From an uncultured bacterium (GTDB taxonomy: Bacteria; Muiribacteriota; Ozemobacteria; Ozemobacterales; Ozemobacteraceae), in assembly GCA_964580875.1 (NCBI GenBank), contig CAZOMG010000017.1, positions 1 through 64,000 on the forward strand: a stretch of DNA of 64,000 nucleotides. Reading direction: 5' to 3'. Under the pieces are notes generated by a model, which was not told where the DNA came from, made no database searches, and was given only the letters and a program-made list of their open reading frames with translations. Shown one piece after another: positions 31,541 to 52,654 of the stretch (position 1 is its first letter; every line of letters starts with the position of its first letter). The position numbers and the translations under genes are program-made.

Positions 31541-31757
31541 ATTTTATTACCCCACCGAAAATTGATTGTACAAGTATACTCTAAAAAGGCGAAAAAGTTT
31601 ACAGCCACCCGCCAATTCCAGCCCAATTTCTAATGCCTGATAAAACCATTCCCGCCCGTTAAAAGACAAATTGAGTGATGATATATAATTACGGCACTTC
31701 CTGTCATTGGCAAATTGGTGTATAAATTACTGTCGAATCAAATTTCGGGAGCTATCT

Positions 31758-32915
31758 ATGAACCTTGTTTATCTTTCTCCACATTATCCTTCTCATTATT
31801 CACAGTTCGTCGAAGCGTTGGCCCGCCATGGAGTCAGGGTTTTCGGTATTTCTGACCTGCCTGACGAAGCACTTGACCCGAGGGTAAGACAGGCTCTCAG
31901 CGGCCATTACAAGGTTGAACGTCTCGAAAATCATCAGCAGGTAATTGATGCCGCCGGTTTTTTTCATGAAAAAGTCGGCGAAATCGACCGTGTTGAGTCG
32001 CATCTTGAACCCTGGATCGAACTTGAAGCCATGGTCAGGGATGCCTTTAATGTAACTGGCCCAAAACCAGAACAACTGCAGTTTATCAAACGCAAATCCC
32101 TGATGAAGGAAGTTTTCAAAAAAGCCGGCGTTCCGGCGGCTCGCGGTATTGTAATAAAAGACATGCAGCAGTGCCTCGACTTTATTAATGACCATTACCC
32201 GGTGTTCATCAAACCAGACATCGGCGTCGGCGCCGCTGATACCTACACTATTCGCAGCGAAGACGATCTTAAAAAGTTTTTCGCCGGCAAGCAGGATTAC
32301 GATTATTTCATGGAAGAATTTGTCGATGGCGATCTGCAGTCGTTTGACGGCCTCACCGACAAAGACAACAACATCGTTTTCTGCACCTCACATGTTTTCA
32401 GCAACGACATTCACAAGGTCGTCAAGAATAACGAGAACGTCTGGTATTATTCGCAGATCGATATTCCGGCAGAAATCGAAAAATACGGGCGCGCGGTCGT
32501 TAAGGCCGCCGATGTGCGTGAAAAATTCTTTCATATTGAATTCTTTAAACTGAAAAACGGCAAGTATCAGGTGCTCGAAATCAATATGCGCCCCCCCGGA
32601 GGCCTGACCACCCACATGTTCAATTTCGCCTGCGATATCGATGTTTATGACTGGTGGGCATCGATTATGGCTGGCCACAACCCGAAACGCCCATTCAGCC
32701 GGCGTTACCATTGCGCTTTCATCGGTCGAAAACATGATCGTTCCTACAAATACTCTCATGATCAGCTTTACGCGAAGTGGGGCGAACGTATTGTGCACAG
32801 TCAGCCAATGGCACCGATTGAATATGATGTAATGGGCCATTGGGGGTATCTTGCACGTTCTGCCAATCTCGATGAACTCAAAAAGATCATCCGCGACCTG
32901 ACCTGGGAGGACTAA
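31758..32915 (+). CDS. ATP-grasp family ligase (function unknown)
   Basis: The ATG at 31758 has RBS GGGAG. An N-terminal pre-ATP-grasp region is followed by a central nucleotide-binding region ('…YPVFIKPDIGVGAADTYTI…') and a C-terminal 'QVLEINMRPPGG' run, where E and N ligate Mg2+ in ATP-grasp enzymes. It overlaps the next gene by TAATG. Confidence 0.7.
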   Translation: MNLVYLSPHYPSHYSQFVEALARHGVRVFGISDLPDEALDPRVRQALSGHYKVERLENHQQVIDAAGFFHEKVGEIDRVESHLEPWIELEAMVRDAFNVTGPKPEQLQFIKRKSLMKEVFKKAGVPAARGIVIKDMQQCLDFINDHYPVFIKPDIGVGAADTYTIRSEDDLKKFFAGKQDYDYFMEEFVDGDLQSFDGLTDKDNNIVFCTSHVFSNDIHKVVKNNENVWYYSQIDIPAEIEKYGRAVVKAADVREKFFHIEFFKLKNGKYQVLEINMRPPGGLTTHMFNFACDIDVYDWWASIMAGHNPKRPFSRRYHCAFIGRKHDRSYKYSHDQLYAKWGERIVHSQPMAPIEYDVMGHWGYLARSANLDELKKIIRDLTWED

Positions 32916-33721
32916 TGAACAGGGAATACCGGACAACCCCGAGCAAAGTGCTCGGCCGTCAGATGGAAATGCTTGTCTATGGCACCTCGGGTAAGCCGAT
33001 GGTTGTTTTTCCATCACAGGAGGGGCGGTTTTTTGACTATGAAAACTTTGGCATGATTGATGTGCTGGCGCCCTATATTCAAGCCGGCAAGCTTCATGTT
33101 TACTGCATCGACAGCATCGATCACGAAAGCTGGTTCGCCCGGGTCAACCCGGTCGAGCGGGTGCAGCGTGCCAACGATTATGACCAGGCGGTTAAAGAAG
33201 ATGTAGTCGCGCTGATTCAGCGTGATGGCCATGAAGGCGCCGGTATCATCGCGCATGGTTGTAGTTTTGGCGCTTTTCATGCCGCCAATTTTGCGTTGCG
33301 ACACCCCGACGCCTTCGACAGCTGTATTGCCCTGAGCGGTTGTTACAACATCGAATTCGCGATGCAGGGCTTTTACAGCAACGAAATGCATTTGCACAAT
33401 CCGATGCGTTACAGTGCCGACCTCAAGGGCAAGGCGATCATCGGGCAGCTTAAAGAGAATCTGCTGATCGTTTGCAGCGGTCAGGGCGCCTGGGAAGAGT
33501 GGACAGGCGAAGCCATTCAGATGTGCAACAATCTCAGCGGTGCCGGCGTGCCGGTTATGCTCGACCTGTGGGGTTACGACGTCAACCATGACTGGCCCTG
33601 GTGGAAAAAAATGATAACGTATTATCTCGATAAATTCGACCGCTCGGGCTTTCTTTCCGCGAAGCATCGCATGAATGCCGGGCAAAGTGCCGGCTTCCTT
33701 CATAATTTCCATTCAATCTGA
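32915..33721 (+). CDS. alpha/beta-hydrolase of the 'putative esterase' family (esterase D / enterochelin esterase / Ag85-like)
   Basis: The nucleophile elbow 'IIAHGCSFGAFHAA' is G-x-S-x-G. The upstream segment 'MEMLVYGTSGKPMVVFPS' and the downstream 'HDWPWW' region are typical of this family. Confidence 0.7.
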   Translation: MNREYRTTPSKVLGRQMEMLVYGTSGKPMVVFPSQEGRFFDYENFGMIDVLAPYIQAGKLHVYCIDSIDHESWFARVNPVERVQRANDYDQAVKEDVVALIQRDGHEGAGIIAHGCSFGAFHAANFALRHPDAFDSCIALSGCYNIEFAMQGFYSNEMHLHNPMRYSADLKGKAIIGQLKENLLIVCSGQGAWEEWTGEAIQMCNNLSGAGVPVMLDLWGYDVNHDWPWWKKMITYYLDKFDRSGFLSAKHRMNAGQSAGFLHNFHSI

Positions 33722-33724
33722 CCC

Positions 33725-34924
33725 ATGACAAACCAGCCGAACCGCAATCCAAATCAGAAGCTGCGGCCTGCCAGCCGGGTATTAAACCTGCCGCCTTATA
33801 TTTTCAGCGAAATTGACGACCGCAAAAACGAGCTGAAAAGGCGCGGAATCGATCTGCTGAATTTTGGCATCGGTGACCCTGACCTGCCTACTCCTGATTT
33901 TGTGGTCGAAGAACTCTGCGAACAGGCACACCAGAACCACAACCAGAAATACCCTTCCTATAATGGCAGTGCCGCCTTTCGCCAGGCGGTCTGCGAGTAT
34001 ATGCAGACTCGCTTCGCTGTCAAACTGAACCCTGAGACCCAGGCATCTTCAGTTATTGGCACCAAGGAAGGCCTGGCGCACTTTTCATGGGCTTATCTCG
34101 AAGAAGGCGATCTCGCGCTGATACCCGATCCGAGCTTTCCGGTTTATGCCAATTCGGCCCGTTTCGCCGGTGCTGGTGTCTACCTGATGCCGCTTCTTGA
34201 ACAGAACAATTTCGTGCCCGACGTTACCGTTATACCCGAAGAGGTGGCGGCCCGCAGCAAGGTGATGTTCATCAATTACCCGAATAATCCCACCGGTGCG
34301 GTGGCCACTCGGGGCCAGGTGCAGAAGATCATCGACTGGGCGGTGGCCAGAGACGTGATTGTGGTGGCTGATGCTGCCTATGCCGAGCTGGTTTATGACC
34401 CGGCCGACCGCTTCAGCGCCCTCTGTCTGCCCGGGGCCGAAAAGGTTGTGATCGAGTATCATTCGTTCAGCAAGACTTTTAACATGACTGGCTGGCGACT
34501 GGGGTTTGCGGTCGGGAACCCTTCGCTGGTCGCTGGTCTGGTCAAGCTTAAAACCAATATCGATTCAGGGGTGTTTGACGCGATTCAGCTCGCGGGAATC
34601 AAAGCCCTGCAGCAACTCCCCGCCTGTTCTGACCAGCTGATGCAGATTTACCGGCAACGTCGTGATGCACTGGTTCAGGTTCTTGGCAAGGCAGGGTTCG
34701 ATTGTTTCATGCCGGCCGGTGCTTTTTATCTGATGGTCAGATGCCCGCCAGGTGTCAGTTCGATGCAGTTTACCATCGACCTGATGGAAAAATGCGGCGT
34801 CATTACCACCCCCGGTTCGGGTTTTGGCGCCTGTGGTGAAGGTTATATCAGGTTCGCGCTGACCCGGCCGGTTGAGGTTATCAACCGCCTGGCAGAGCGC
34901 CTGCCGGCTTTACAATACCGCTGA
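33725..34924 (+). CDS. class I (fold-type I) PLP aminotransferase, LL-diaminopimelate/aspartate aminotransferase-like
   Basis: 'NFGIGDPDLPTP' near the N-terminus, 'NYPNNPTG', and the Lys-containing segment 'SFSKTFNMTGWR' as the PLP-binding lysine region. Confidence 0.75.
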   Translation: MTNQPNRNPNQKLRPASRVLNLPPYIFSEIDDRKNELKRRGIDLLNFGIGDPDLPTPDFVVEELCEQAHQNHNQKYPSYNGSAAFRQAVCEYMQTRFAVKLNPETQASSVIGTKEGLAHFSWAYLEEGDLALIPDPSFPVYANSARFAGAGVYLMPLLEQNNFVPDVTVIPEEVAARSKVMFINYPNNPTGAVATRGQVQKIIDWAVARDVIVVADAAYAELVYDPADRFSALCLPGAEKVVIEYHSFSKTFNMTGWRLGFAVGNPSLVAGLVKLKTNIDSGVFDAIQLAGIKALQQLPACSDQLMQIYRQRRDALVQVLGKAGFDCFMPAGAFYLMVRCPPGVSSMQFTIDLMEKCGVITTPGSGFGACGEGYIRFALTRPVEVINRLAERLPALQYR

Positions 34925-34936
34925 AGGGAAATACCA

Positions 34937-37294
34937 ATGAGCAACGAAAAATTCGCTGATGCCTGGTTCAAATGGGGTGCCGGTTTTATTGTTCGCCGGC
35001 GTCGCCTGCTGTTTTTGGCGCTTGTTATCGTTTCGTTCTGCGGTCTGATATTTTCGCGCAATATCAATCTTGATAACAGCCTCGAACTCTGGTTTCTCGA
35101 AGGCGACCCGGCCCTTGAAGCCTACAATGAGTTCAAAAAGAAATATGGCAACGATGAAGTCATTCTCGCCATGGTTGACTGCACGAAAGATGGCATGTTC
35201 TCGCCGGCGATGCTCTCTGCCATTTATAAGGCATCGAAAGAAATTGAAGACGATACAAAGAATTTTAAAAGGGTTTTGAGTGTCGGTCTGTCGCCCTACA
35301 TCGGCCTCAATGGCAATGATCTGACCATTGAGGATATGATGAAAGGGCCGGTTAATACTATTGAAGAAGCCGAAGAAATCAAGCGCCGCTTCAATGATGA
35401 CCCATTCAAACGGCGAATTCTGCAAAATGCCAGTTCGACCTGGGCAATCATTATTGCCGAGCCGGTCGCTACGCCAGACATGGATGTTCGCCGCCCCGAA
35501 ATTATCGAGGCGATGCGTAGCCGGTTAGCGGGTTTCAATTTTCGCCTGGCTGGTATGGGTGTCATGTATAATGAGCTTAACCGGCTCAGTGTCCAGGATG
35601 GCGTTGTTTTCAACGCGGTCGCTTACGTGGCGATTGCCGCCATGGTTTTTATTCTCTACCGTTCCTGGGTTTTTCTGCTGATGGCCCTGGGCGCCATGTT
35701 TTTCAGCGGTCTCGGCTTTCTGGGTTTCTACGGGTTGTTCGGGCAGAACTTCAATATGGTCACCATTGTTCTGCCTACTCTGATGATGATCTTGTCGGTT
35801 TCTGATGTCGCCTACGCTTATAATAACTACTGTTATAACTCAGCCCACGTCAGAAAAAACCGCGAAGAAGGCCTCGAACACGTATTCTACGAGGTTCTCT
35901 CACCATGCCTCTTCACCTCGCTGACCAATGCAGCCGGTTTTCTGGCACTGGTGACCAGCCCGCTCCAGGTTCTCAGGGTGTTTGGTCTATTTGCTGCCTT
36001 TGCCTGCCTCGCCGAATATATCGTTTCGATGGTTGTTTCGGCATTTCTACTTGGCCGGGTCGATCTTAAAGAAGATGTTCAGATCAGAAGGCCTTTCGAA
36101 GGCCCGGTTGACTGGTGGATGCAGCGAATGCCGCGTTATTACATGCACATTATGGTAATCACTTTTATTCTGACAGTGCTTTCAATATACGGTATTACCA
36201 AATTGCAGGTCGATACCTACTCAATGGGCTTTCTACAGGAACAGAATGCCATCAGAGTTGACAGCGATGCCGTTGAAGCTACTTACGGCAACTATCTGCC
36301 CCTAGAGGTTCGACTGCTGACCGGTGAAAAGGATGGCGTCAAAAAGGTCGAATTTCTCAGACGACTCGAGCAGACCCTCAGCGATCTCGTCGCGGTTCCA
36401 GGGGTCGAAAAACCGGCCTCTATTCTTGACGTGCTCAAAAAGATGAATCAGGTAATGAGTACCGGCGATATGGCACAGACCTATGTGGTGCCGGCCAGTG
36501 ATGAGGCGGTCAGCCAGTTGCTGATGCTCTATGAATCTGATCCTGATAACGATCTCGAATACATGACCGATAACCCTGATTATACTGAAGCGCGTTTGAC
36601 GGTGCGGGTTCCGATGATCAGTGCCGCCGGTCTGTATGAATTTGAAGAAAAGGCCAGCCGGATTCTCGAAAAGAACTTTGCCGGCAGCAAAACCACCTGG
36701 AAATTCGGCGGCTATGTACCCCTTTATGCCCGCATCATCACCTATGTTACCTGGAGCCAGATCAGCAGTTTTGCCACCGCTTTTGTTTTTGTTTTCGGGG
36801 CCATTTTTATTCTGTTCAGGCGCCTGAAGGCAATGACGCTGATAATTCTGCCGAATATTTTCCCGATTATCTTTACTCTTGGTTTCATGGGCATAACCGG
36901 CCTGAAGCTTGATATTGCAACGGTTACCATCGCTGCTATTGCCATGGGTATTGTGGTTGATGACTCTATTCATGCGCTGTACCTGTTTTATGATCCATCG
37001 CGGTCGAAGTTTGCCCCGGTTGAAGCTGTGGTCGATGGCATAAGAGAAGCTGGCCCGGCAATCGTTTCGACCTCGCTGATTTATTCGATCGGCTTTCTCT
37101 TTATGGTTTTTGCCAGCATCAAATCAGTTATATATTTTGGCCTGCTGCTGTCGCTGACCATCATTGTGGCTCTGGTATGCGAGGTGACGATCATGCCCGC
37201 CCAGGTCTGCCTGTTGCACCGGTTTCTCTCGTCTGATTTCGCTTCTGGCAAAGAAACAGCCGTTCCTGCGCCTGAAGAAAACAGCAAAGGGTAG
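34937..37294 (+). CDS. MMPL/RND-superfamily exporter (two 6-TM bundles, each followed by a periplasmic domain)
   Basis: 785 aa with TM clusters at about residues 15-35 and 230-400, and again at about 420 and 600-780. This is the typical MMPL/HpnN-like exporter topology. Confidence 0.7.
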   Translation: MSNEKFADAWFKWGAGFIVRRRRLLFLALVIVSFCGLIFSRNINLDNSLELWFLEGDPALEAYNEFKKKYGNDEVILAMVDCTKDGMFSPAMLSAIYKASKEIEDDTKNFKRVLSVGLSPYIGLNGNDLTIEDMMKGPVNTIEEAEEIKRRFNDDPFKRRILQNASSTWAIIIAEPVATPDMDVRRPEIIEAMRSRLAGFNFRLAGMGVMYNELNRLSVQDGVVFNAVAYVAIAAMVFILYRSWVFLLMALGAMFFSGLGFLGFYGLFGQNFNMVTIVLPTLMMILSVSDVAYAYNNYCYNSAHVRKNREEGLEHVFYEVLSPCLFTSLTNAAGFLALVTSPLQVLRVFGLFAAFACLAEYIVSMVVSAFLLGRVDLKEDVQIRRPFEGPVDWWMQRMPRYYMHIMVITFILTVLSIYGITKLQVDTYSMGFLQEQNAIRVDSDAVEATYGNYLPLEVRLLTGEKDGVKKVEFLRRLEQTLSDLVAVPGVEKPASILDVLKKMNQVMSTGDMAQTYVVPASDEAVSQLLMLYESDPDNDLEYMTDNPDYTEARLTVRVPMISAAGLYEFEEKASRILEKNFAGSKTTWKFGGYVPLYARIITYVTWSQISSFATAFVFVFGAIFILFRRLKAMTLIILPNIFPIIFTLGFMGITGLKLDIATVTIAAIAMGIVVDDSIHALYLFYDPSRSKFAPVEAVVDGIREAGPAIVSTSLIYSIGFLFMVFASIKSVIYFGLLLSLTIIVALVCEVTIMPAQVCLLHRFLSSDFASGKETAVPAPEENSKG

Positions 37295-37319
37295 ACAATT
37301 CTGGCAGAAGAGTTATAAT
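37292..37319 (+). promoter_or_regulatory. putative sigma70 promoter (TAGACA-16-TATAAT) for the DUF4178/DUF350/SpeE cluster
   Basis: -35-like TAGACA at 37292-37297 and -10 TATAAT at 37314-37319. It lies 35 nt upstream of the ATG at 37354. Confidence 0.35.
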
Positions 37320-37353
37320 ATTATTATGAAATAATCTGCCGGGGGGTGTGAGG

Positions 37354-37962
37354 ATGGCCGTAACTCTAACCTGTCCTTCTTGTGGCAACCAGATCACTCA
37401 GATCACCAGGTCGCCGCAGATTCTTGTGTGCCCGGCCTGCAATACCACAAGCTTTTTGCAGAACGGCAAGCTCGAAGATGTTGGCAAATCAGCGATTTTG
37501 ACCGATATCCCGAGTATTTTCAAGATCGGCAAGATGTTTCGCCACAAAGACTGGCGTTTTACCCCCGTTGGGCGTGTCAGATACGACTATGGTGACGGCT
37601 GGTGGGATGAATGGTTCGTTAGAAGCGACAACGGCAAAGAAAGCTGGGTTTCGGTCGATGAGGGCGAAATAGCCATAGAAACCCTCGTTCAAGATAAACT
37701 CAACGTGCCCCCCTTCGATAAGCTTTCGGTGGGCGGGGTTCTGGTTATCAATCGCATTCGCATGACCGTCATCGAAAAAAATACCTGCACGATGATAGGT
37801 GCTCAGGGCGAACTCCCATTCCGCATCATCCCAGGCGAAACATATGGCTACATTGACCTTCTTGGCCAGAAACGCGCTTCTTTCACAATTGAATACCAGG
37901 CCGGCGGCATCGAGTGCTACAAAGGCGTCTGGATCGACCCGTTCGAGATTCAAGAGGTTTAA
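37354..37962 (+). CDS. zinc-ribbon + DUF4178-like protein (soluble paralog)
   Basis: The N-terminal run 'CPSCGNQITQ…VCPACNT' forms a four-Cys ribbon. It is followed by a ~150-aa beta-rich domain containing '…WVSVDEGE'. I preferred the ATG at 37354 over the GTG at 37348. Confidence 0.55.
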   Translation: MAVTLTCPSCGNQITQITRSPQILVCPACNTTSFLQNGKLEDVGKSAILTDIPSIFKIGKMFRHKDWRFTPVGRVRYDYGDGWWDEWFVRSDNGKESWVSVDEGEIAIETLVQDKLNVPPFDKLSVGGVLVINRIRMTVIEKNTCTMIGAQGELPFRIIPGETYGYIDLLGQKRASFTIEYQAGGIECYKGVWIDPFEIQEV

Positions 37963-37965
37963 TTT

Positions 37966-39264
37966 ATGGCACAGGCAGTAGCAAAACCGGCTCTCAGAGC
38001 CTTAAAATGTACTCAGTGCGGCGGTTCAATTGAACTGCGCGGTGGCCATAACGTCAGATCAATCGTTTGTCAGTATTGTGGCTCGTGCCTTGACGCTAAA
38101 GACGAATTCAAACTGCTGCATAAATTTGTTAATAACAAACGGCCGTATATGCCCATTAAAATTGGTGCTTCCGGCAAGCTCAGAGGGGTGATGTTCACGG
38201 TAATCGGCGCTCTTCAATACGAAGAACGCGAAGAAGGTGAAGTCTATCACTGGCTCGAATACCTCATGTTCTCGCCAACCCACGGCTATGTCTATCTCTG
38301 CTACGAAGATGGCCACTGGGTGCTGGTGCACGAAGTTAAAGATCTGCCCGAGACCCCGGTAGAACTTTTCAGCCCCCGCAAGACAAAATTCAAGGTCCGC
38401 GATAAGAGTTTCAAGGTCTTCGAAAGCTCCGGCGCCCAGATTTCCTACGTCGAAGGCGAACTGACCTGGCTGGCCAAGCAGGGCGAAAAGATCATGTATC
38501 TTGATGCTGTCTGCCCGCCTTACATGTATTCAATTGAGCAGCGCGGCTCCGAACAGGAATTCTTCTGGGGCGAATACATCAGCCCGGCCGAAATGAACGA
38601 AGCTTTCCGCATCGAAAATATCGAGCCGGCCTCGGTTTTTTGCTGCCAGCCCATGTTGGTCAGCCCTTTGTTTGAAGCTTTTTCCAAAGGGGCGCTGGCG
38701 GCTTCGGTTCTCGCCCTGATTATGTATTTTATGATTTCCAGCAATGGCAGAACTGTCTTTCAGCAAAACTTTACCAATCAGTTGTTCGCTGACGGTGAGA
38801 CTTCAAAAGAGTTCAAAGTTGATTCCCCGGGCACTCTTTATGGCATAACCGTCCAAACCCCCAACCTTAAGAACGCCTGGTCGTTCTTCGATGTCAGGGT
38901 TGTAGATCGTGACGAGACGAATCAGTTGTTCACCATGCCGACCGCACTCTCTTACTATGAGGGTTACGAAGATGGCGAATACTGGTCAGAAGGCGAAACC
39001 GAGGTCGTTTCGTATTTCAGGGTCCCTGAAACCGGTGAATTCAAGCTCGCTATTGATGGTGAGGGTGGTACCGGTGAAGAACCGGCCCCTAATTTTTCTC
39101 TTGGAAATGTTGCCGTTACGATTCGCAAGGGCGTCAGGCTCGGGCATTACACACTCAGCTGGTTTGTACTCTGCCTGTTGCTTGCCGCTCCTTATGCCAT
39201 CAAGTATCTGCGTTTTGAGCAGGCTCGCTGGCACTCAGATGACGACGATGAGGATGACGACTGA
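37966..39264 (+). CDS. zinc-ribbon + DUF4178-like protein with C-terminal TM helix and poly-acidic tail
   Basis: 'LKCTQCGGSIE…VCQYCGSCLD' is a Zn ribbon, followed by a DUF4178-like domain ('HWLEYLMFSPTHGYVYLCYEDGHWVLV'). A second beta-rich domain follows. The TM helix reads 'LSWFVLCLLLAAPYAIKYL' and the tail ends 'SDDDDEDDD'. Confidence 0.55.
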   Translation: MAQAVAKPALRALKCTQCGGSIELRGGHNVRSIVCQYCGSCLDAKDEFKLLHKFVNNKRPYMPIKIGASGKLRGVMFTVIGALQYEEREEGEVYHWLEYLMFSPTHGYVYLCYEDGHWVLVHEVKDLPETPVELFSPRKTKFKVRDKSFKVFESSGAQISYVEGELTWLAKQGEKIMYLDAVCPPYMYSIEQRGSEQEFFWGEYISPAEMNEAFRIENIEPASVFCCQPMLVSPLFEAFSKGALAASVLALIMYFMISSNGRTVFQQNFTNQLFADGETSKEFKVDSPGTLYGITVQTPNLKNAWSFFDVRVVDRDETNQLFTMPTALSYYEGYEDGEYWSEGETEVVSYFRVPETGEFKLAIDGEGGTGEEPAPNFSLGNVAVTIRKGVRLGHYTLSWFVLCLLLAAPYAIKYLRFEQARWHSDDDDEDDD

Positions 39265-39446
39265 TGAATAAAATGGTATTAATGTTTGCCGGCGTCTTTA
39301 CGATGGTAACTGTTTTGGCAATTGCAACTGACTATCTGCGCCCCGAGGGCTATTCGACCACCCCGTCCGTAAAAAAAGAAAAGAATATCCGCGAACGCAG
39401 TGTCTACATGAATGGCACTCATCGCGGTTTCATGCATGGCAAGTAA
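39264..39446 (+). CDS. small single-TM protein (60 aa)
   Basis: ATGA overlap with the upstream stop. The translation starts 'MNKMVLMFAGVFTMVTVLAIATDYL…'. Confidence 0.4.
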   Translation: MNKMVLMFAGVFTMVTVLAIATDYLRPEGYSTTPSVKKEKNIRERSVYMNGTHRGFMHGK

Positions 39447-39498
39447 TTATCTGCCGCAGTTATTGCAGCAAAATCAATAAAACTGGAGCATAGACAAC

Positions 39499-39723
39499 AT
39501 GGGAAACAATATTGCAGACCTTTCGACGGGTCCGATTCTATCGACGATCGTTTATTCGATTATCGGCCTGGTAATTTATATGATAGCTTTCTGGCTCATC
39601 TGCAAAATTTCACCGTTTTCAGTGCGCAAAGAAATCGAAATTGATCAGAACACCTCGCTTGGCATTATCATCGGTTCAGTAATGATCGGTCTGTCAATCA
39701 TCATCGCATCATCGATGCATTGA
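39499..39723 (+). CDS. DUF350-family small membrane protein (YjfL-like)
   Basis: 74 aa with two TM helices: '…STIVYSIIGLVIYMIAFWLI…' and '…LGIIIGSVMIGLSIIIASSM'. RBS GGAG. Confidence 0.55.
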   Translation: MGNNIADLSTGPILSTIVYSIIGLVIYMIAFWLICKISPFSVRKEIEIDQNTSLGIIIGSVMIGLSIIIASSMH

Positions 39724-39868
39724 ACGACTTTTCTCTGTTAACCGGGCGGGCGGCCTGTTAATTATCCAGAAATAGCGAAAGTCATTTTAGAGCAGCAGCG
39801 AAATTCCCAGATGGTCAGTCTGTTTGATTGCCCGGCTGGTTGCGTTTCAATGACGGAAGGTTACAGCA

Positions 39869-41410
39869 TTGCAGGTATTTCTTCTCGCGGCGGTCTTTTT
39901 TATTGCCGTCTGTGGTCTTGTTTATCAACTTCTCGCCGGTACTATATCCAGTTACCTGGTCGGTGACTCTGTTTACCAGTTTTCTCTGGTAATCGGCCTG
40001 TTCATGAGTTCAATGGGGCTGGGGTCTTTTTTGTCGCGATTTATCAACGACCGGTTGCATGACTGGTTTGTTTTTGTGGAAATTATGACCGGCATGGCTG
40101 GCGGGCTAAGTTCAATCATTTTGTTTGTTGCTTTTGCCCAGATAGAGAATTATACGCCATTTCTGCTGCTGGTCTCAATCACGATCGGCACACTGATTGG
40201 CCTTGAATTGCCGATCATTCTTCGCATCGTCAAAGAACACAATACCCTCAAAATTGTCGTTTCTAATGTCATGACCGCTGATTACGCCGGTGCCTTGTTT
40301 GCTTCGCTGCTTTTCCCGCTGGTACTGGTGCCGCAGCTCGGTCTGGTTCGAACCAGCTTGATGTTTGGTCTGATGAATGTTGCGGTGGCCACAGCGGCTA
40401 TTCATGTGTTTCGCGACCGGTTGACTTCGCGAAATAATCTGCTGCTGCTGGCAACGACCGGTATGCTGCTGCTCGCCACCTGTTTTGCCTATGCTGACCG
40501 CATTTCGAGCTATGCCGAAGATACCCTCTACAAAGACGACGTTATTTATGCGGCGACTTCGCCTTATCAGCGGGTTGTAGTTACGAGAACCCGCAATGAT
40601 GTGCGCATGTTTATCAATGGTAGCATTCAGTTCAGCAGTCAGGACGAATACCGTTACCACGAGGCTCTGGTGCTGCCTGCCATGTCGGCGGCCCATTCCC
40701 GTCGGAATGTTCTGGTTATAGGTGGTGGCGATGGGCTGGCGGCTCGTGAAATCTTTAAATTCAGCGATGTTGAGCACCTGACCGTTGTTGATATCGACCC
40801 GGCCATCACCAATTTTGCCCGCGATAACCTGTTGATGCGAGAACTCAACAAGAACTCACTGCGTGATACCCGTACCCGCATCGTCAACGAAGACGCCTGG
40901 AAATATCTTGAGAGCGCCCCTGATATGTATGATGTAGTCATTATTGATCTGCCAGACCCCGATGATCTGTCGTTGAGCCGCCTTTATTCGAAAACTTTTT
41001 ATCGACTGCTGGCGCAGAAGTTAGCCCGGGGCGGCAAAATCGTCACGCAGGCAACTTCGCCGCTCTATTCCCACAAGGCTTTCTGGTGCATTCACAACAC
41101 TCTGGCCCAGATCGAAAACCCGCTCGTTAAATCCGAAAATGCCTCAGAAACCATTTTTTTGCAGCCCGAAGCTTATCATTGCTACGTTCCATCATTTGGC
41201 AGCTGGGGGTTTGTAATGGCCTCAAACACCCCGTTTAACTGGCAGAACATCGAGGTGCGGGTGCCGGCAAGATTCGTTAACAGCGATTACCTAAAGGTAA
41301 TGAACCGGTTTCCGTCTGATATTGCCCGCGTAGATACCGAAATCAATTCAATCGATACTCATATCGTCAGAACCTACTACGAAGAAGGCTGGGATAAATG
41401 GTCGCTTTAA
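39869..41410 (+). CDS. membrane-anchored spermidine/spermine synthase-like aminopropyltransferase (N-terminal ~7-TM domain + SpeE catalytic domain)
   Basis: TTG start with GGAAGG RBS. There are ~200 aa of TM helices, then 'VLVIGGGDGLAAREI…VVDIDPAIT…VIIDLPDPDD', which are the SpeE-type Rossmann and Asp motifs. Confidence 0.75.
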   Translation: MQVFLLAAVFFIAVCGLVYQLLAGTISSYLVGDSVYQFSLVIGLFMSSMGLGSFLSRFINDRLHDWFVFVEIMTGMAGGLSSIILFVAFAQIENYTPFLLLVSITIGTLIGLELPIILRIVKEHNTLKIVVSNVMTADYAGALFASLLFPLVLVPQLGLVRTSLMFGLMNVAVATAAIHVFRDRLTSRNNLLLLATTGMLLLATCFAYADRISSYAEDTLYKDDVIYAATSPYQRVVVTRTRNDVRMFINGSIQFSSQDEYRYHEALVLPAMSAAHSRRNVLVIGGGDGLAAREIFKFSDVEHLTVVDIDPAITNFARDNLLMRELNKNSLRDTRTRIVNEDAWKYLESAPDMYDVVIIDLPDPDDLSLSRLYSKTFYRLLAQKLARGGKIVTQATSPLYSHKAFWCIHNTLAQIENPLVKSENASETIFLQPEAYHCYVPSFGSWGFVMASNTPFNWQNIEVRVPARFVNSDYLKVMNRFPSDIARVDTEINSIDTHIVRTYYEEGWDKWSL

Positions 41411-41423
41411 CAATGGCAAGCCT

Positions 41424-41789
41424 ATGAAAACCCCAGATTCGATCCATATTATCGCCGATTTCAGCGGTTGCCCGGCTGACCTTTTGCAATTCAGCAGTCA
41501 GGGCGAAGAAATTCTCAAAAAGACCATCGAAAAGAGCGCCCTCAGTTGTGTCATGCTCATGTCGCATCAGTTCGCGCCGGTGGGTTATACCGCGGCGGCC
41601 CTGCTCACCGAATCACATATAACGCTGCATACCTGGCCCGAGTTCTCGGCGGTGCAGATCGATATTTTTACCTGCGGCAGCCATGATAAAGCTCGACTGG
41701 CCTTCAGTGAACTGCAGAACATTTTCAGCCCGACCCGGATTGCCGAAAAAACTCTTTTCCGCCGTCTCAGCAGTCTCGTAGAAGATTGA
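41424..41789 (+). CDS. speH: S-adenosylmethionine decarboxylase proenzyme, class 1A (SpeH/SpeD-type)
   Basis: 121 aa containing '…LLTESHITLHTWPE…', the self-cleavage Glu-Ser site that yields the pyruvoyl group. Confidence 0.8.
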   Translation: MKTPDSIHIIADFSGCPADLLQFSSQGEEILKKTIEKSALSCVMLMSHQFAPVGYTAAALLTESHITLHTWPEFSAVQIDIFTCGSHDKARLAFSELQNIFSPTRIAEKTLFRRLSSLVED

Positions 41790-41879: not shown

Positions 41880-42035
41880 ATGAGAAAATGGGAAAACTAC
41901 ATCTATGGCTTCACCGGCGCCGCTCTCGGCGCTCTGGGGTTTCTTTTTCTCATTCTCGGCGCTGGCTGTCTGCTTGGTTCTTTTGCGGCGGTCGTCGTAA
42001 CCATTAAGAAACAAACGGGTTTTCAGCTGTTCTGA
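41880..42035 (+). CDS. small hydrophobic protein (51 aa, below the ORF-track threshold)
   Basis: The ATG at 41880 is preceded by RBS GGAGG at 41870-41874. The translation is 'MRKWENYIYGFTGAALGALGFLFLILGAGCLLGSFAAVVVTIKKQTGFQLF' with two TM helices. Confidence 0.3.
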   Translation: MRKWENYIYGFTGAALGALGFLFLILGAGCLLGSFAAVVVTIKKQTGFQLF

Positions 42036-42052
42036 ATTCTCAGGCTGAATGA

Positions 42053-45000
42053 ATGCTAGAACTATCTGATATCTTTCGTATGCTGCCGGGGTACTATATC
42101 TTTATCGGTGGTATCTGCCTGGTGGTAATTGGTGCTTTGCTGAAGGCCGGTGCCCCTTTTGCCCGCGACAGAACCAGTCTCAATTGGCTGGTGACGGCAC
42201 TGATTGCCCTGGGGCTTGGGCGAATTTTCATGGCGTTTACTACGCTGCTGCCTGACAGAGTTTTTTTTCTTTTCGAGGCGGTCGCACGCATTGTAGCCAC
42301 ACACGCGTTTCTTGAGTTCGCACGACAGGTGCTTGCCACGCATATCTGCAACGCATTGCAGGTGCATCTGCCTCTTGCGACTGCTTTAATAAGTCTTTAT
42401 GCCTTGTCAGCCGGTCGAGCCTCGCCATCATTGCTGGTGGTTATGTCGTTGGTGAGGCTGCTGGCCTGTTGGGCCGGAATCAAGTTCGCCAGTCGGCTGC
42501 CGCCCGAGAGTCGACGCTTTGGCATCGCCGCTTTCATTGTGGCCATACCGATGATTTTGGTGCAGGGTGTGTTGCATCTGGTGATGGCCAATGCTGGCAT
42601 TGGTTTTTCTCAGATTACTGAGAAATGGTTGCTGAAGTTCTATTTTGATCTGGCATCCCTCGGCGTGATAATGATTCTGGTGCTGCTGGCAGGTTTTGCC
42701 CGTGAAAAAGCCCATAAACTGTCATCGCCGGCTGTTCAGTACATTCCGGCGGCTATTGCACTGGCGATCATGGCGGTTACGGTTTTTGGTTTGCACTTAA
42801 GCCACCAGGTGGCTCTGAATAATTTTAACAACAGTAAGGCCCGTCTTGAACAGGCAGTGCAAAGTCTGGGCAAAATTGTCGATCAGCGTATTGCTTTTGT
42901 ATCGACTGCTTCGGCTATTCTGGCGGCCGCGCCAATCATGTCTGGTTACCTCGCCAATCCTGATGCCGATAATTTTCGCCGTTTGAACCATTTCATCGAG
43001 GCTTTTTCTCAGAGAAACCCAGGTTCGATCTGCTATATCATGAACGATTCTGGTCTGGTTAAGGCGGCTTCTGATCTTAAGCAACTTTTTATTGGCAAAG
43101 ACCTGAGTTTTCGCAGGTATTTTCAAGATTCCATGACCGGAAAATATTCATTGCAGGCTGATGTCGGGGTTTTAACCAATACCCTGGGCTTCTATGCGGG
43201 TTCTCCAATCCGCAAAGATGAAAATGGCCCGGTTATCGGCGTCTGTGCAGTTAAACGTAATCTCGATGACCTTGACCAGACCTTTAAAATGTATCATCCT
43301 GCAATGCTCATCGATGCCTCAGGTACCGTAATTCTTGCTAGCAATCGGTCGCTGCTCGGCACCAGTCTGCCATCACTGGCTGGCATCTCTTCAACAGTTA
43401 AACCCTTTGCCGAAACGAAAGTCGATCTTCCGGGTATTGACGCAAATCAATATTTATTTGGGCTTGCCACCCTTGAGCTTTTGAATTGCCGAATGATCAT
43501 GCTGCTTCCTTCTGATGCCGGTTTTAACCAGTCCTGGGTCTTTTCGATAATTCTGTTGATTGTTATCGTTTTTCTTGCGGTTTTGAGCAGTTTCACCAGG
43601 CATATCGAGTCGGTGCGTTCAATTGAAGCGGCTCAGAATCACTTCAAAGCCCTTTTTGAAAACGCCCCCGAAAGCATTCTGGTAGTTTCAGTGCCCGGCT
43701 TGAAAGTTGTTGAGGCCAATCAGAGCATGTTGCGGCAGTTTCAGTTGCAGGCTCTGCCAGTCGGTCTCTTATACCCTGCCCTGATGCCTCAGGGAAGACT
43801 CAAAATTACCAATGCCTGGCACAGCGTCTCAAAACAGATGTTCAAGCATCAACGTGAGTTTCGCAAACAGGGGGGCGAGATTTTTTTTGCTGAGGTTATT
43901 GGTTCAGTCATAGATTTTAACGGCGAAAAATCGCTGCTGCTGATTCTTCATGACATAACCGTTCACCATGAAGTCGAAAATCGCCTGCGCGAAGCAAAAA
44001 ATGCCGCCGAAGAAGCAAATTCGCTTAAAGCGCGATTTTTTGCCAATGCCAGTCACGAAATCCGCACACCGATGACCGCGATTATTGGCCTGACTGAACT
44101 TGCTGTTGATGCATGCCAGGAAGAAAAGCTGAAACGTCTCATTGAATTGATACGCACTTCAAGCAAGGCGATGCTGACCCTGCTGAATGATATTCTTGAA
44201 CTCGCTCAGATCGAGTCGGGAAAACTCGCTATCAATCCGGTGCAGTTTAATCTGCCACTGCTGCTGCATGATCTGATCGAGATTATCAGGTTCCAGGCAG
44301 AGAAAAACGCTGTCAGGGCTGAGCTCAAGGTTGCTGCCACTATCCCAGAAATCGTGATTGCCGACCCTGACCGCATCAGACAGATCCTTCTTAACCTTCT
44401 TGCCAACGCGGTCCGCTTTACCCGACATGGGGTAATAAGCCTGACTGCCGATCTTTCAACTGACAGAAACGGCCATTATTCAGTTGATTTTATGGTTTCA
44501 GACACTGGAATGGGAATTTCGGATGAAATGAAGCGCAATCTTTTTGGTGCCTTCGTTTTTAATGACCCCTTTGTCAAAAATGATGCCCAGAACGGCAATC
44601 TTGGCTTGTCAATCAGCAAACAGCTGATCGATCTGATGGGCGGCAGCATCAATGTTGACAGCCGACCCGGCGAGGGCACCACCTTTCGGGTTTCCATTCC
44701 GGTTGCCTGCAAGGATATTGCCACTCCCGGTGTGCATGCAAGCCCCTTGCTGAATTTAGAACTCATCAGAGATGGTCGGCCCCTGCATTTTCTCATTGCT
44801 GACGACAATGATATCAACCTGTTTCTGGCCAGTTCGATCATCGAAAGATTCAAGGGCACCTCGCAGTGCGTCAATGATGGAGTTGAGGTTCTTGAAGCCG
44901 TTGGCAAAAGCTCTTATGATGCCATACTGCTCGATATTCAGATGCCCCGCCTCGACGGCATTGCCACTCTGAAAGAATTACAGAAAACCACTGCTGCATC

Positions 45001-46950: not shown

Positions 46951-46976
46951 AAAACCGCATTCGCGGTTTTTTTTTA
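46951..46976. terminator. bidirectional terminator hairpin (AAAACCGC-ATTC-GCGGTTTT)
   Basis: A short GC stem flanked by A- and T-runs lies between two convergent genes. The T-run overlaps the M48 gene stop. Confidence 0.4.
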
Positions 46977-47831
46977 TTTTTCAGAGGTGCTGGTGGCTTC
47001 GGCCTGCGGTGCAGATTTCCAGAAAACCGGCTTAACGCTGCCTATCTGATAGTGATTGTTGGCAGTGAGTTGTTCAATAGCCTTGATTCGCTTCGCTGAT
47101 GCGGGGTGCGTTGACAGATAGTGCACCAGATCGGGCAGGCTTTCACGGGCGGCCAGGCGGGTGAAAAAATCGCTGGCGCCACCAGAATGCCCGTAATGTT
47201 TGACCAGCAGATGCAACGCAAAGGCGTCAGCGGCGTATTCCTGCTCCCGGGAGTAGTTGTTTTGCAGTATTCCTGACGAATTCATCAGTGATTTGGTCGC
47301 GGAGCTGTCACCTAAAAAAACGTTTGCCACGATAAAGAATAGAAAACTACGCCCCAGGCCGCGCAGATGATCGCGGCTGACGAAATGACCAAGCTCATGG
47401 GCGAGAACCATCGCCAGTTCATTTTCTGACTCGATCTGTTCGAGAAGTTCGGAATAAATAACAATGTGGCCGCCAGGCAGTGCCAGAGCGTTTATGTCTT
47501 TTTCGACGACAACGCTGACCTTGAATTTCCTTGAATTGTTTTCGATTTTATCGGCCAGAGAATCAAGCAGTTGCTGAATTTCGGCAGTTTTGAAGTTGTC
47601 GGTATTTTTGCGGGTGGCACTGACTTCTTCCATTATGGGGGCGGCAAGCGCGTCTTCCCAGCTTGGGGGGATATAGGGCACCACAAAATCTACGAGCAGG
47701 CCGAGCACCAGATAGACGCCCAGACCGAGCAGCACCACCTGAAACATGACGCGCAGGCCGGCAGAGAATGTTGAATAGGGCGAGACATTGATGTTTTCGT
47801 CTTCTTCAACCAGTCTGGCTACGAATTTCAT
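46974..47831 (-). CDS. M48-family zinc metallopeptidase (HtpX-like) with N-terminal TM helix
   Basis: HExxH in 'MVLAHELGHFVSRDH'. A TM helix reads 'VMFQVVLLGLGVYLVLGLLVDFV'. I placed the start at the ATG at 47829-47831, 1 nt after the upstream YbjQ stop. Confidence 0.65.
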   Translation of the reverse strand: MKFVARLVEEDENINVSPYSTFSAGLRVMFQVVLLGLGVYLVLGLLVDFVVPYIPPSWEDALAAPIMEEVSATRKNTDNFKTAEIQQLLDSLADKIENNSRKFKVSVVVEKDINALALPGGHIVIYSELLEQIESENELAMVLAHELGHFVSRDHLRGLGRSFLFFIVANVFLGDSSATKSLMNSSGILQNNYSREQEYAADAFALHLLVKHYGHSGGASDFFTRLAARESLPDLVHYLSTHPASAKRIKAIEQLTANNHYQIGSVKPVFWKSAPQAEATSTSEK

Positions 47832-47832
47832 T

Positions 47833-48321: not shown

Positions 48322-48323
48322 AA

Positions 48324-52516: not shown

Positions 52517-52654
52517 CCATCAAAGCCTGTTGCCAGTGTCTTTTTTTTGCAGAAAGAAATAAAAGTTTGTGATAGCATTAACAAACAAGACAGCTGATTT
52601 GCTCTGACACAGCTTAATTTGCATTACCGAAGGCATATATCTGGAGGGAATGAA

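Follow-up and report, generated by a model that had tools for sequence, protein, structure and literature searches.

A conserved gene cassette with no neighbouring pspA probably encodes a membrane-embedded aminopropyl-transfer machine

Introduction

The DUF4178, DUF350 and seven-transmembrane (7-TM) spermine-synthase-like families are documented neighbours of PspA (Ravi et al. 2024, PMC11237479), as an earlier note on this DNA had stated. A contig from a Candidatus Riflebacteria (Ozemobacteraceae) metagenome, analysed here over a window of 64,000 nt (the whole stretch of DNA under study), carries all three together with an AdoMet decarboxylase (AdoMetDC), and raises the question of what such genes do where pspA is missing from their surroundings and which amine their aminopropyltransferase modifies. 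Based on sequence comparison, we propose that the locus is probably an operon with its own promoter, independent of PspA, whose products form a machine embedded in the membrane that transfers aminopropyl groups from decarboxylated AdoMet (dcAdoMet).

Organization of the locus

Six open reading frames (ORFs), A to F, were found between 37354 and 41789, all on the + strand, in agreement with the six co-directional genes described before. They are listed here with the features that flank them.

37292..37319, + strand: candidate sigma-70-like promoter, TAGACA-16 nt-TATAAT, match to consensus
37354-37962, + strand: gene A, 202 aa, four-cysteine zinc ribbon and DUF4178, soluble, predicted cytoplasmic
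37966-39264, + strand: gene B, 432 aa, bitopic, zinc ribbon and DUF4178
39264-39446, + strand: gene C, 60-aa microprotein with an N-terminal helix
39499-39723, + strand: gene D, 74 aa, DUF350 (YjfL family), two TM helices
39869-41410, + strand: gene E, 513 aa, 7-TM domain and aminopropyltransferase
41424-41789, + strand: gene F, 121 aa, class 1b pyruvoyl AdoMetDC proenzyme
41880-42035, + strand: 51-aa TM ORF, downstream, lineage-specific
42053-45601, + strand: hybrid histidine kinase with dCache, PAS, HisKA, HATPase, REC and Hpt domains (Pfam)

The ATG of gene A is preceded by a ribosome-binding site, GGGGGGTGTGAGG, whereas the ORF list begins the gene at GTG 37348. Gene E starts at a TTG behind a GGAAGG ribosome-binding site, and an independent gene caller agrees on this start. 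Genes B and C overlap by one base (TGATG), and the ATGA noted at 39264 does occur there; the other gaps measure 3 nt (A/B), 52 nt (C/D), 145 nt (D/E) and 13 nt (E/F). Rfam gave no match in 31-47 kb, thus pointing to no riboswitch in the 145-nt D/E gap, and a terminator scan returned nothing convincing 3' of gene F.

Position 37292, formerly taken as the start of the module, is not a gene start and falls instead on the first hexamer of the promoter-like site. This TAGACA-16-TATAAT sequence matches the consensus at 11 of 12 positions, is the best + strand site in a scan of 31.4-46.7 kb, and is placed within the 59-nt gap between the stop of an MMPL gene (37294) and gene A. The upstream ATP-grasp, alpha/beta-hydrolase, DapL and MMPL genes were left out of the system, since they co-occur with it within Riflebacteria only (8-9 loci) and the promoter-like site lies between them and gene A. 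Downstream, 13 loci share the 51-aa ORF and 16 the kinase cluster, most of them in Riflebacteria; this pair is a possible regulator outside the conserved core.

Zinc-ribbon, DUF350 and decarboxylase components

Profile searches bore out the families first suggested for the DUF4178 pair, the DUF350 protein, the 7-TM-fused aminopropyltransferase and the AdoMetDC, with A, B, D, E and F all exceeding the curated cut-offs of Pfam and NCBIfam. Gene A scores 45.4 bits against DUF4178 (PF13785; cut-off 25) over profile positions 2-136 of 136, and gene B 69.8 bits over positions 1-136. The full length of A aligns to residues 12-213 of B (22% identity, E 4e-4), so that the paralogy proposed for these two zinc-ribbon proteins is real. 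Protein B comprises a zinc ribbon, DUF4178 (65-207), a TM helix (234-257), a beta-sandwich (262-388), a second TM helix (394-422), an FExxRW motif and a DDDDEDDD tail. The acidic tail attributed to B before is thus present, while the single C-terminal TM helix gives way to two helices flanking the sandwich. This sandwich of ~130 aa contains the motif SYYxGYEGGExWSEG (AF2 model of B, pLDDT 85), and its conserved aromatic and acidic residues would suit the binding of an amine or cation. To our knowledge, a TM-sandwich-TM module of this kind has not been described before.

A and B are modelled as beta-barrel/sandwich folds rather than NTF2. Their comparison with YdjG finds no support in Ravi et al., who describe YdjG, from the ydjFGHL pspA operon of B. 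subtilis, as two zinc ribbons with a YpeB/NTF2-like domain and a TM segment, without DUF4178 (Ravi et al. 2024, PMC11237479). Profile searches for B and for microprotein C found no match to DUF4247 or DUF2617, and a PDB sequence search with the B profile returned zinc-ribbon noise only. Two apparent Rosetta-stone fusions of A and B (B of 650 and 819 aa in L036 and L043) were rejected as ORF over-extensions in GC-rich DNA.

Gene D matches PF03994 with 46.9 bits (cut-off 26, E 4e-12) over profile positions 5-65 of 133, making it a half-size, two-TM member of DUF350; E. coli YjfL has 132 aa, against 74 aa here. In 67 of 82 loci (the 79 loci of the census below, the window, L002 and L007), and in the window itself, a DUF350 gene immediately precedes that of the TM-aminopropyltransferase. 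Gene F scores 96.9 bits against AdoMet_dc and 87.4 bits against TIGR03330 (cut-off 75.65), aligns to the Aquifex (2iii) and T. maritima (1tlu) enzymes, and retains the ESH processing site, the HTWPE motif and the FTCG cysteine. Its earlier assignment to class 1A needs correction, as the small T. maritima/B. subtilis type to which it belongs is class 1b in the usage of the field (PMC10407285).

Conservation of a five-gene core

The census comprised 79 species-level loci, 63 of them with enough upstream DNA to judge the core. An ordered core of small DUF4178 protein, large DUF4178 protein, microprotein, DUF350 and TM-aminopropyltransferase was found in 50 of these 63. The genes are thus conserved as neighbours, contrary to the outcome that would have refuted the earlier note. 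The core spans Riflebacteria, Lentisphaerota/Verrucomicrobiota, Gamma- and Alphaproteobacteria, Campylobacterota and one Desulfurellales MAG, and further, independent metagenome contexts show a consistent arrangement; identical gene order in dozens of species from several phyla puts the arrangement far beyond chance. The remaining 13 of the 63 loci carry enzyme E, with or without DUF350, and no A-B-microprotein set nearby, and one Bacteroidia locus has A, B and the microprotein but lacks E, showing that the two halves can be uncoupled.

Of the 79 census loci, 19 have an AdoMetDC gene next to E, as do the window and L007; these 19 are every Riflebacteria whose contig extends past E and four others. 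AdoMetDC is a lineage-specific addition and not, as once supposed, a dedicated part of the module, and for the remaining loci we infer the supply of the dcAdoMet donor. In Campylobacterota, an nspC-like carboxy(nor)spermidine decarboxylase gene stands immediately 3' of E in 19 loci and nearby in 23. The flanking decarboxylase varies by lineage yet remains within polyamine chemistry.

The membrane aminopropyltransferase

Protein E has seven hydrophobic segments in residues 1-209 and an aminopropyltransferase domain at about 220-513. It scores 122.8 bits against Spermine_synth, 599 bits against NCBIfam PRK03612 (cut-off 472) and 58.8 bits against NF037959, 'fused MFS/spermidine synthase' (cut-off 40), while falling under the equivalog cut-offs of the cytosolic SpeE models TIGR00417 (126.8 vs 249.55) and PRK00811 (156.7 vs 260). 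Its nearest solved relatives are thermospermine synthase ACL5 (6bq2, 1.5e-34) and Thermus SpeE. The catalytic site is intact, with D259, E260, Y263, H264, E265, G285, D288, D308, D310, D342, D360, D363 and Q394 invariant among 82 orthologues. The TM domain likewise has invariant positions: D33 in predicted outer loop 1, N133 in predicted loop 4, and E113, D138 and Y139 embedded in the membrane. By the positive-inside rule, applied to K+R counts per loop, E is predicted to have its N-terminus inside and its C-terminus outside, placing the catalytic domain beyond the cytoplasm. We know of no periplasmic pool of dcAdoMet, and so this predicted placement is hard to square with a simple cytoplasmic reaction.

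It could be that E is an ordinary membrane polyamine synthase that converts a free di- or triamine into spermidine, thermospermine or norspermine, in which case the 7-TM domain or DUF350 would export the product or position it at the envelope and A, B and C would only regulate. We consider this plausible without favouring it. PRK03612, whose cut-off E exceeds, is named a polyamine aminopropyltransferase by NCBIfam, the nearest solved enzymes make thermospermine or long polyamines, the adjoining AdoMetDC and nspC-like enzymes belong to the polyamine pathway, and the invariant D33, E113 and D138 fit a cation path. The shortfall of E against both cytosolic SpeE models is harder to accommodate. 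Moreover, in work of 2019 by Li, Kurihara, Kim, Liang and Michael, species carrying such a fusion are said to have been without spermidine, and the fusion enzymes reportedly made none and failed to complement an E. coli speE mutant. The description of this module as polyamine-producing was overstated. Ordinary synthesis would also leave four strictly co-inherited accessory genes and the Gly-Lys terminus of one of their products unexplained.

The Gly-Lys microprotein

The product of gene C has a signal-anchor or signal-peptide-like helix at its N-terminus; a conserved (S/I)(V/I)R-x-x-S motif follows, then a variable spacer rich in G, S and Y, and an invariant Gly-Lys at the C-terminus. It matched no Pfam or NCBIfam family, and a single-sequence HMMER search of 1.84 billion representatives gave just five matches, far fewer than a profile search through a word index. 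The C-terminus reads [S/G]-[Y/F/W]-x-x-Gly-Lys in all 60 census orthologues and in 104 of 105 database clusters, whereas the rest of the tail is variable and of low complexity; in 91% of clusters, the final 21 residues contain no Lys but the terminal one. Among background small ORFs, 19 of 4726 end in GK. The gene is always 3' of B, including in L068, where A-B is relocated, and in L006, which is without SpeE. As far as we know, the microprotein has not been described before; its Gly-Lys ending is new here, as is the outer placement predicted for the catalytic domain of E.

Such a tail raises the prospect of peptide aminopropylation, which we regard as rather unlikely overall. The acceptor would be the epsilon-amine of the C-terminal Lys, the product a membrane-anchored peptide ending in an aminopropyl-lysine or in a longer polyamine-like chain, and the B beta-sandwich would bind or present the tail. 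A terminal motif kept while its surroundings vary and a unique terminal Lys both fit this, and the microprotein tail, the B sandwich and the catalytic domain of E are all predicted on the outer side. E resembles enzymes with long-amine acceptors (ACL5, Thermus SpeE), the fusion enzyme of Li and colleagues reportedly does not use putrescine, and the sister DUF350 operon of E. coli offers a precedent for peptide-polyamine conjugates in YjfC. Yet the microprotein follows B and not E, as seen in the Bacteroidia locus without E and in the 13 of 63 E loci without the microprotein, and for the reaction to take place in the periplasm dcAdoMet would have to be exported, for which we know of no precedent. 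Quite unlikely is the fullest version, in which periplasm-facing E obtains dcAdoMet via its own 7-TM domain (D33, E113, D138) and aminopropylates Gly-Lys to yield a ribosomally encoded, membrane-anchored peptide-polyamine conjugate bound or presented by the B sandwich. Should E modify Gly-Lys, the long-sought acceptor that widespread TM-SpdSyn-like fusions use in place of putrescine would be identified, and bacteria would have a counterpart of diatom silaffin lysine polyamination and of YjfC peptide-spermidine conjugates.

Search for PspA and its partners

The absence of pspA reported before holds for the window at ~6.5-64 kb, and pspA does not recur beside the cassette in the 79 other species. 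PspA_IM30 (PF04012) was not found among the Pfam-annotated genes of the window at ~6.5-64 kb, and the three long ORFs of the first 6.5 kb, covered by an NCBIfam search only, gave no PspA-like match (one had no match of any kind). Searches by phmmer with E. coli PspA and YjfJ produced 0 matches in 88 sources (87 loci and the window). Likewise, PspA_IM30 is absent from the families matched by at least 2 of 150 neighbour proteins and from the Pfam-annotated cassette contexts. YjfI (DUF2170, CesT/Tir-like) had no match in the loci, and phmmer found no homologue of YjfI, YjfJ, YjfK, YjfM or YjfC in any cassette locus. PspB and PspC matched once, ~10 kb away in L069, a locus without A, B and the microprotein. 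Since the absence of pspA is established for locus neighbourhoods, and the gene may lie elsewhere in the genome, 'self-contained' was too strong a word for the module.

The cassette might still belong to a PspA-dependent envelope-stress system that simply has its pspA and CesT/Tir genes at another locus of the genome. The same partner families do occur in Shewanella PspA operons (Ravi et al. 2024, PMC11237479), and two genes for Band_7, a PspA-context family, sit beside the cassette in 8 Riflebacteria loci. This dependence is nevertheless unlikely: no PspA lies within 10 kb in roughly 85 loci across several phyla, a sample in which some linkage would be expected if PspA were required, and the cassette has a promoter-like site of its own.

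Finally, it is very improbable that the microprotein is an Lpp-like tether cross-linked through its C-terminal Lys to peptidoglycan or another envelope polymer while the aminopropyltransferase acts on something else. In favour of this, the tail is predicted periplasmic with a unique terminal Lys, such a Lys is the peptidoglycan attachment point of Braun's lipoprotein, and L092/L093 carry two genes for YkuD L,D-transpeptidases, ~6 kb away from that of the microprotein and ~4.5 kb past the cassette end. However, the YkuD genes were seen in one lineage only and are not adjacent, and the reading does not account for the microprotein's strict linkage with B and with an enzyme of polyamine type.

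Proposed mechanism and implications

For the aminopropyl-transfer machine that we prefer, gene F would supply decarboxylated AdoMet in the cytoplasm, with which E would aminopropylate an acceptor amine at the membrane. Proteins A and B, the Gly-Lys microprotein and DUF350 may be fixed subunits or clients that assemble E, gate it or present the acceptor, with B spanning the membrane between a cytoplasmic zinc-ribbon/DUF4178 module and a periplasmic beta-sandwich. The sequence data establish the gene content, the families, the intact catalytic site, the conserved gene order and the absence of pspA nearby; that the proteins form a complex, which way signals run and what the acceptor is, we infer. 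The acceptor may be a free polyamine, for example spermidine or norspermidine, at somewhat under an even chance; the C-terminal lysine of the microprotein is a doubtful candidate, and a lipid or other envelope amine a distinctly improbable one.

Together, the window and the census define a compact five-gene core that travels across phyla without PspA, with the microprotein as a specific candidate acceptor or ligand for the enzyme. A peptide or envelope component as acceptor would amount to a new kind of envelope modification, while a free polyamine would make this an unusual membrane-coupled polyamine synthase with dedicated partners.

Comparison with known systems

A great many bacteria, mycobacteria reportedly among them, have TM-fused SpdSyn-like enzymes together with DUF350 and AdoMetDC. 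Clusters of AdoMetDC, an MFS-like/SpdSyn-like fusion and DUF350 are said to have been described by Li and colleagues in 2019. The window resembles these in uniting a class 1b AdoMetDC, a multi-TM SpdSyn-like fusion and DUF350; in contrast to them, the conserved core has five genes, including two zinc-ribbon DUF4178 proteins and the Gly-Lys microprotein, and the AdoMetDC is merely a lineage-specific neighbour. Ravi et al. refer to Li et al. 2019 on the gene linkages of AdoMetDC and on 'aminopropylation of other substrates' (PMC11237479). Clusters of this type have been published before (Li et al. 2019; Ravi et al. 2024).

In Shewanella oneidensis, AAN56744-AAN56747 belong to a CesT/Tir-PspA operon with a 7-TM spermine synthase, DUF350, a Ctha_1186 lipoprotein and DUF4178 (PMC11237479). 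DUF4178, DUF350 and the 7-TM aminopropyltransferase are common to this operon and the cassette, and an RHH-type regulator is sometimes attached; REC-RHH genes are found in 13 of the loci analysed here. However, the cassette is without PspA, CesT/Tir and the lipoprotein, its DUF4178 is duplicated with one copy membrane-spanning, its DUF350 has 2 TM helices instead of 8, and it possesses the Gly-Lys microprotein.

PspA-free polyamine operon variants with AdoMetDC, and thus less novelty than the earlier note implied, are found in the same survey, which includes M. tuberculosis CCP45394 (DUF2617) and CCP45395 (DUF4247) (Ravi et al. 2024, PMC11237479). The M. tuberculosis variant is PspA-free like the cassette, with DUF4247 and DUF2617 as accessory proteins where the cassette has the B sandwich and the microprotein. 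We take CCP45394 and CCP45395 to be Rv2598 and Rv2599, which would precede the DUF350 gene Rv2600 and the membrane speE Rv2601.

ACL5 and Thermus thermophilus SpeE (PDB 6bq2, 1uir, 3anx) share with E the motifs DE(F/Y)xYHE, GGG(D/E)G, DID, DLxDP and PS(Y/F)..WG(F/W)V(M/L)AS; unlike E, they are soluble and cytosolic, without a TM domain or partner cassette. The E. coli yjfIJKLMC operon, like the cassette, links DUF350 (YjfL) to an enzyme of polyamine chemistry; in contrast to the cassette, it has an ATP-grasp ligase in place of the aminopropyltransferase, and also contains PspA-like YjfJ and CesT. By its RefSeq name, and reportedly in Pederick 2023, YjfC is a peptide-spermidine ligase joining spermidine to peptide C-termini, and its product resembles the one expected from aminopropylation of a C-terminal Lys.

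Gene organization and family assignments

The cassette comprises six genes, A to F, and an independent gene caller gave the same genes on the identical metagenome contig ENA ERZ27257423. Judged by the names that its close homologues bear, the window belongs to Candidatus Riflebacteria/Ozemobacteraceae.

37354-37962, + strand: gene A, small DUF4178 protein, 202 aa
37966-39264, + strand: gene B, large DUF4178 protein, 432 aa
39264-39446, + strand: gene C, microprotein, 60 aa
39499-39723, + strand: gene D, DUF350 protein, 74 aa
39869-41410, + strand: gene E, membrane-fused aminopropyltransferase, 513 aa, TTG start
41424-41789, + strand: gene F, AdoMet decarboxylase (AdoMetDC), 121 aa

The junctions measure 3 nt (A/B), -1 (B/C, TGATG), 52 nt (C/D), 145 nt (D/E), and 13 nt (E/F). 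A 59-nt gap separates the cassette from an upstream MMPL/HAE3 transporter gene and holds the site TAGACA-16-TATAAT, the top sigma-70-like match of the surrounding 15 kb, which coincides with position 37292, where an earlier note had begun the module. Pfam profiles detected DUF4178 in A (45.4 bits) and B (69.8 bits), a half-length, two-helix DUF350 in D (46.9 bits), Spermine_synth in E (122.8 bits), and AdoMet_dc in F. In NCBIfam, E exceeded the cut-offs of the membrane-fused aminopropyltransferase model PRK03612 (599 bits, cut-off 472) and of NF037959, "fused MFS/spermidine synthase" (58.8 bits, cut-off 40), while F matched TIGR03330 (87.4 bits, cut-off 75.65). The profile searches gave no family assignment for gene C. 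The observation made in the earlier note, from sequence alone, is confirmed: its six reading frames and four family calls hold, and three points, concerning the helices of B, the type of DUF4178, and the class of F, are corrected below. Its reading of the region as a membrane-stress/polyamine module lacking PspA is supported in part.

Conservation of the cassette

Scanning with an alignment of E, one genome per species, yielded 80 loci, of which 79 were kept (one duplicated a contig already included); together with the window and two comparison loci, L002 and L007, these make 82 orthologues. ORFs were called in each locus and searched with HMMs that represent the window proteins and relatives of these. 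Sequence reaching 2.7 kb or more upstream of E was available for 63 loci. In 46 of these, one strand carries A, B, the microprotein, and DUF350 in order, and in four additional loci the microprotein was recognized by inspection only; five others have DUF350 only, and eight have neither. The genes are thus conserved neighbors; a lack of such conservation would, according to the earlier note, have refuted its reading. Carriers of this core include Riflebacteria, Victivallales/Verrucomicrobiota, Thiotrichales, Chromatiales, Methylococcales, Beggiatoa/Thiomargarita, Geminicoccaceae, many Campylobacterota (Sulfurovum), and one Desulfurellales MAG; a cultured carrier is Thiolinea disciformis DSM 14473 (L086). 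The contexts of distant B homologues revealed the same five genes in Gammaproteobacteria MAGs and on a complete 5.2-Mb Ozemobacteraceae chromosome.

In a Bacteroidia MAG (GCA_041391725, locus L006, 9390-12269), A and B are followed by an 80-aa Gly-Lys microprotein, with neither DUF350 nor the aminopropyltransferase, so the A-B-microprotein half is able to stand alone. The 223-aa protein that follows had no match in Pfam or NCBIfam.

The absence of pspA from the surroundings of the cassette was likewise borne out. No PF04012 protein was found among the called genes at ~6.5-64 kb of the window, and the three long ORFs of the first 6.5 kb (one ankyrin-repeat-like, one CorA, one without a match) gave no PspA-like match in NCBIfam, the only library scanned there. 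E. coli PspA, YjfJ, and YjfI as phmmer queries had zero matches in any locus. When 150 neighbor proteins of PspA-like size, ranked by coiled-coil-like composition, were scanned with Pfam, PspA_IM30 was absent from the families matched by at least two of them, and it was also missing from four additional Pfam-annotated contexts.

The DUF4178 proteins

Over its full length, A aligns with the first 213 residues of B (22% identity, E 4e-4), and the two are therefore paralogous zinc-ribbon plus DUF4178 modules. The anatomy of B was derived from an alignment of 24 homologues and an AlphaFold2 model (pLDDT 85). Its N-terminus is a four-Cys zinc ribbon, followed by an all-beta DUF4178 domain (65-207) and two TM helices (234-257 and 394-422), where the earlier note had seen one. 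Between the helices lies a beta-sandwich of ~130 residues (262-388) carrying the aromatic/acidic and, across the homologues, almost invariant motif SYYxGYEGGExWSEG; past the second helix come FExxRW and an acidic tail. Residues E338, W340, and E342 of B mark a candidate pocket. B is thus bitopic: its sandwich would lie in the periplasm, with the zinc ribbon, the DUF4178 domain, and the acidic tail all on the cytoplasmic side. The label "YdjG-type" is not supported, as the description of B. subtilis YdjG includes no DUF4178 (Ravi et al. 2024, PMC11237479).

A microprotein ending in Gly-Lys

The microprotein is conserved wherever B occurs: at locus L068, where A-B is displaced downstream of E, it still follows B, and it does so in the Bacteroidia locus without E or DUF350. 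Gly-Lys-stop ends all 60 HMM-detected orthologues; among 4726 small ORFs taken as background, 19 do so. The same ending is seen in the microprotein ORFs recognized by inspection, which lie in the B-DUF350 interval or, at L068, behind the displaced B; all four from the census are included. In a profile search of 5.8 billion proteins, the GK terminus was present in 104 of 105 clusters, the exception sitting on a 992-nt contig, and position -5 was aromatic in 97, so that the terminal motif reads [S/G]-[Y/F/W]-x-x-G-K. It is preceded by a freely variable G/S/Y-rich spacer, and the terminal Lys is the sole Lys of the last 21 residues in 91% of clusters. A positive N-terminal flank and a net acidic charge over the first 15 residues past the helix predict that the tail resides in the periplasm or is released into it.

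One lineage (L092 15669-18201 and L093 10193-12725) has a pair of YkuD-type L,D-transpeptidase genes that encode PG_binding_1 domains as well; the distance is ~6 kb to the microprotein gene and ~4.5 kb to the cassette end. They would be relevant only if the terminal Lys is a cross-link site.

The aminopropyltransferase

The solved catalytic domains nearest to E are those of thermospermine synthase ACL5 (6bq2, E 1.5e-34) and Thermus thermophilus SpeE, and E scored below the equivalog cut-offs of the cytosolic SpeE models in NCBIfam. All catalytic-motif residues (D259, E260, Y263, H264, E265, G285, D288, D308, D310, D342, D360, D363, and Q394) are invariant in the 82 orthologues, which argues that E is an active enzyme under selection. 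The TM-domain residues D33, E113, N133, D138, and Y139 are invariant as well; by our own segment boundaries, E113, D138, and Y139 fall within helices, D33 in outer loop 1, and N133 in loop 4, and the domain looks able to bind a cation.

Across the 82 sequences, the mean K+R count is 1.2 at the N-terminus and then 0.0, 2.2, 0.1, 2.9, 0.3, and 2.9 in successive loops. Combined with seven hydrophobic segments and the positive-inside rule, this predicts an inside N-terminus and a catalytic domain outside the cytoplasm. Such a placement is unexpected, since we know of no extracytoplasmic pool of decarboxylated AdoMet (dcAdoMet), the aminopropyl donor. It does match the usual layout of those envelope-modifying enzymes whose TM helices are odd in number and whose catalytic domain is external. 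The predicted helices of B, C, D, and E (37966-41410) sum to twelve (7 + 2 + 2 + 1), as in a full MFS transporter, which may be numerology.

Decarboxylases beside E

In alignment, F matches the Aquifex and Thermotoga enzymes and retains the ESH self-processing site, placing it by sequence in the small class 1b form; the earlier assignment to class 1A does not stand, as class 1a is the E. coli type (PMC10407285). An AdoMetDC follows E in 19 census loci (all Riflebacteria whose contig extends past E, one Verrucomicrobiota, one Methylomonas, and two Chromatiales), as in the window and L007. In Campylobacterota, a PLP decarboxylase of ~357 aa lies directly 3' of E in 19 loci and nearby in 23 in total; it is nearest to carboxynorspermidine decarboxylase NspC (TIGR01047, 304 bits, below the 409 cut-off).

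L058 2671-3768, and 22 further loci: nspC-like PLP decarboxylase, in 19 of the loci directly 3' of the TM-aminopropyltransferase, in the position of the Riflebacteria AdoMetDC

The flanking decarboxylase is thus variable, but remains one of polyamine chemistry.

Flanking genes

Riflebacteria add ATP-grasp and alpha/beta-hydrolase genes (9 loci each) and an MMPL gene (8 loci) upstream, with a DapL-like aminotransferase between the ATP-grasp/hydrolase genes and the cassette in 4 loci; this group was not seen in other phyla. An ATP-grasp ligase beside the poly-Asp/Glu-tailed protein B is suggestive. The positions of these and other flanking genes are as follows:

window 31707-37294 and L007 6011-9265: ATP-grasp, 268-aa alpha/beta-hydrolase, and DapL-like aminotransferase preceding the cassette, joined in the window by the MMPL/HAE3 transporter
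window 41880-45601 and L007 15856-19614: a Riflebacteria addition downstream of the cassette, with a conserved 51-aa TM ORF and then a dCache/PAS hybrid histidine kinase (13-16 loci)
L007 13785-15811, also L016, L018, L019, and L021: two opposite-strand Band_7 (SPFH) genes, which separate AdoMetDC from the 51-aa ORF/kinase in 8 Riflebacteria loci and are absent from the window
window 46974-48674, - strand: M48 metallopeptidase adjoining two YbjQ_1 (DUF74) genes, just past the histidine kinase and an MnmL/YtqA-type radical SAM gene
window 52619-63675: downstream lysine-fermentation set (Pfam, identical JGI contig), with beta-lysine/aminotransferase-like, BKACE (Kce), two CoA-transferase subunits, Kdd-like dehydrogenase, lysine 2,3-aminomutase (radical SAM + LAM_C), and lysine 5,6-aminomutase alpha and B12-binding subunits

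Lysine/cadaverine chemistry near a polyamine-type operon may be coincidence. The cassettes of other phyla have REC-RHH response regulators (13 loci) and further kinases in their vicinity.

Proposed function and acceptor

The best-supported reading, which we hold to be moderately probable, is a PspA-independent membrane complex in which the 7-TM E would transfer the aminopropyl group of dcAdoMet, made in the Riflebacteria lineage by F, to an amine, with A, B, the microprotein, and DUF350 acting as fixed partners. The conservative choice of acceptor is a free polyamine, consistent with the neighboring decarboxylases. The most interesting candidate is the invariant C-terminal lysine of the microprotein, as its tail, the sandwich of B, and the catalytic domain of E are all predicted on a common side; yet this reading loses weight, as the microprotein tracks B and not E, and as dcAdoMet would have to be exported for a reaction in the periplasm. 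Concrete experimental handles are offered by the core of five genes, by B as a bitopic DUF4178 protein, by the microprotein with its Gly-Lys end, and by the catalytic domain with its predicted outward orientation.

Comparison with known systems

Li et al. reportedly described, in 2019, thousands of genomes in which AdoMetDC genes form clusters with DUF350 and an MFS-like/SpdSyn-like fusion. Spermidine was reportedly not found in species with such clusters, the fusion is said not to have complemented a speE mutant, and the authors reportedly concluded that its substrate is not putrescine. In a Shewanella operon, CesT/Tir and PspA occur as a pair together with DUF350, DUF4178, a lipoprotein, and a spermine-synthase-like protein of 7 TM helices, and related polyamine operons have PspA-free variants with AdoMetDC; such systems have been suggested to monitor polyamines "or aminopropylation of other substrates" (Ravi et al. 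2024, PMC11237479, citing Li et al.). The RHH regulator of that study is echoed by the REC-RHH response regulators near the cassette in other phyla, and Band-7, present at the 8 Riflebacteria loci, is a family it tied to PspA and polyamine operons. E. coli YjfC, from the sister operon with DUF350, now bears the RefSeq name of a peptide-spermidine ligase (see also Pederick 2023, as cited in other papers). The cluster type is thus already noted in the literature, and the cassette described here is a variant of it, not a new system.
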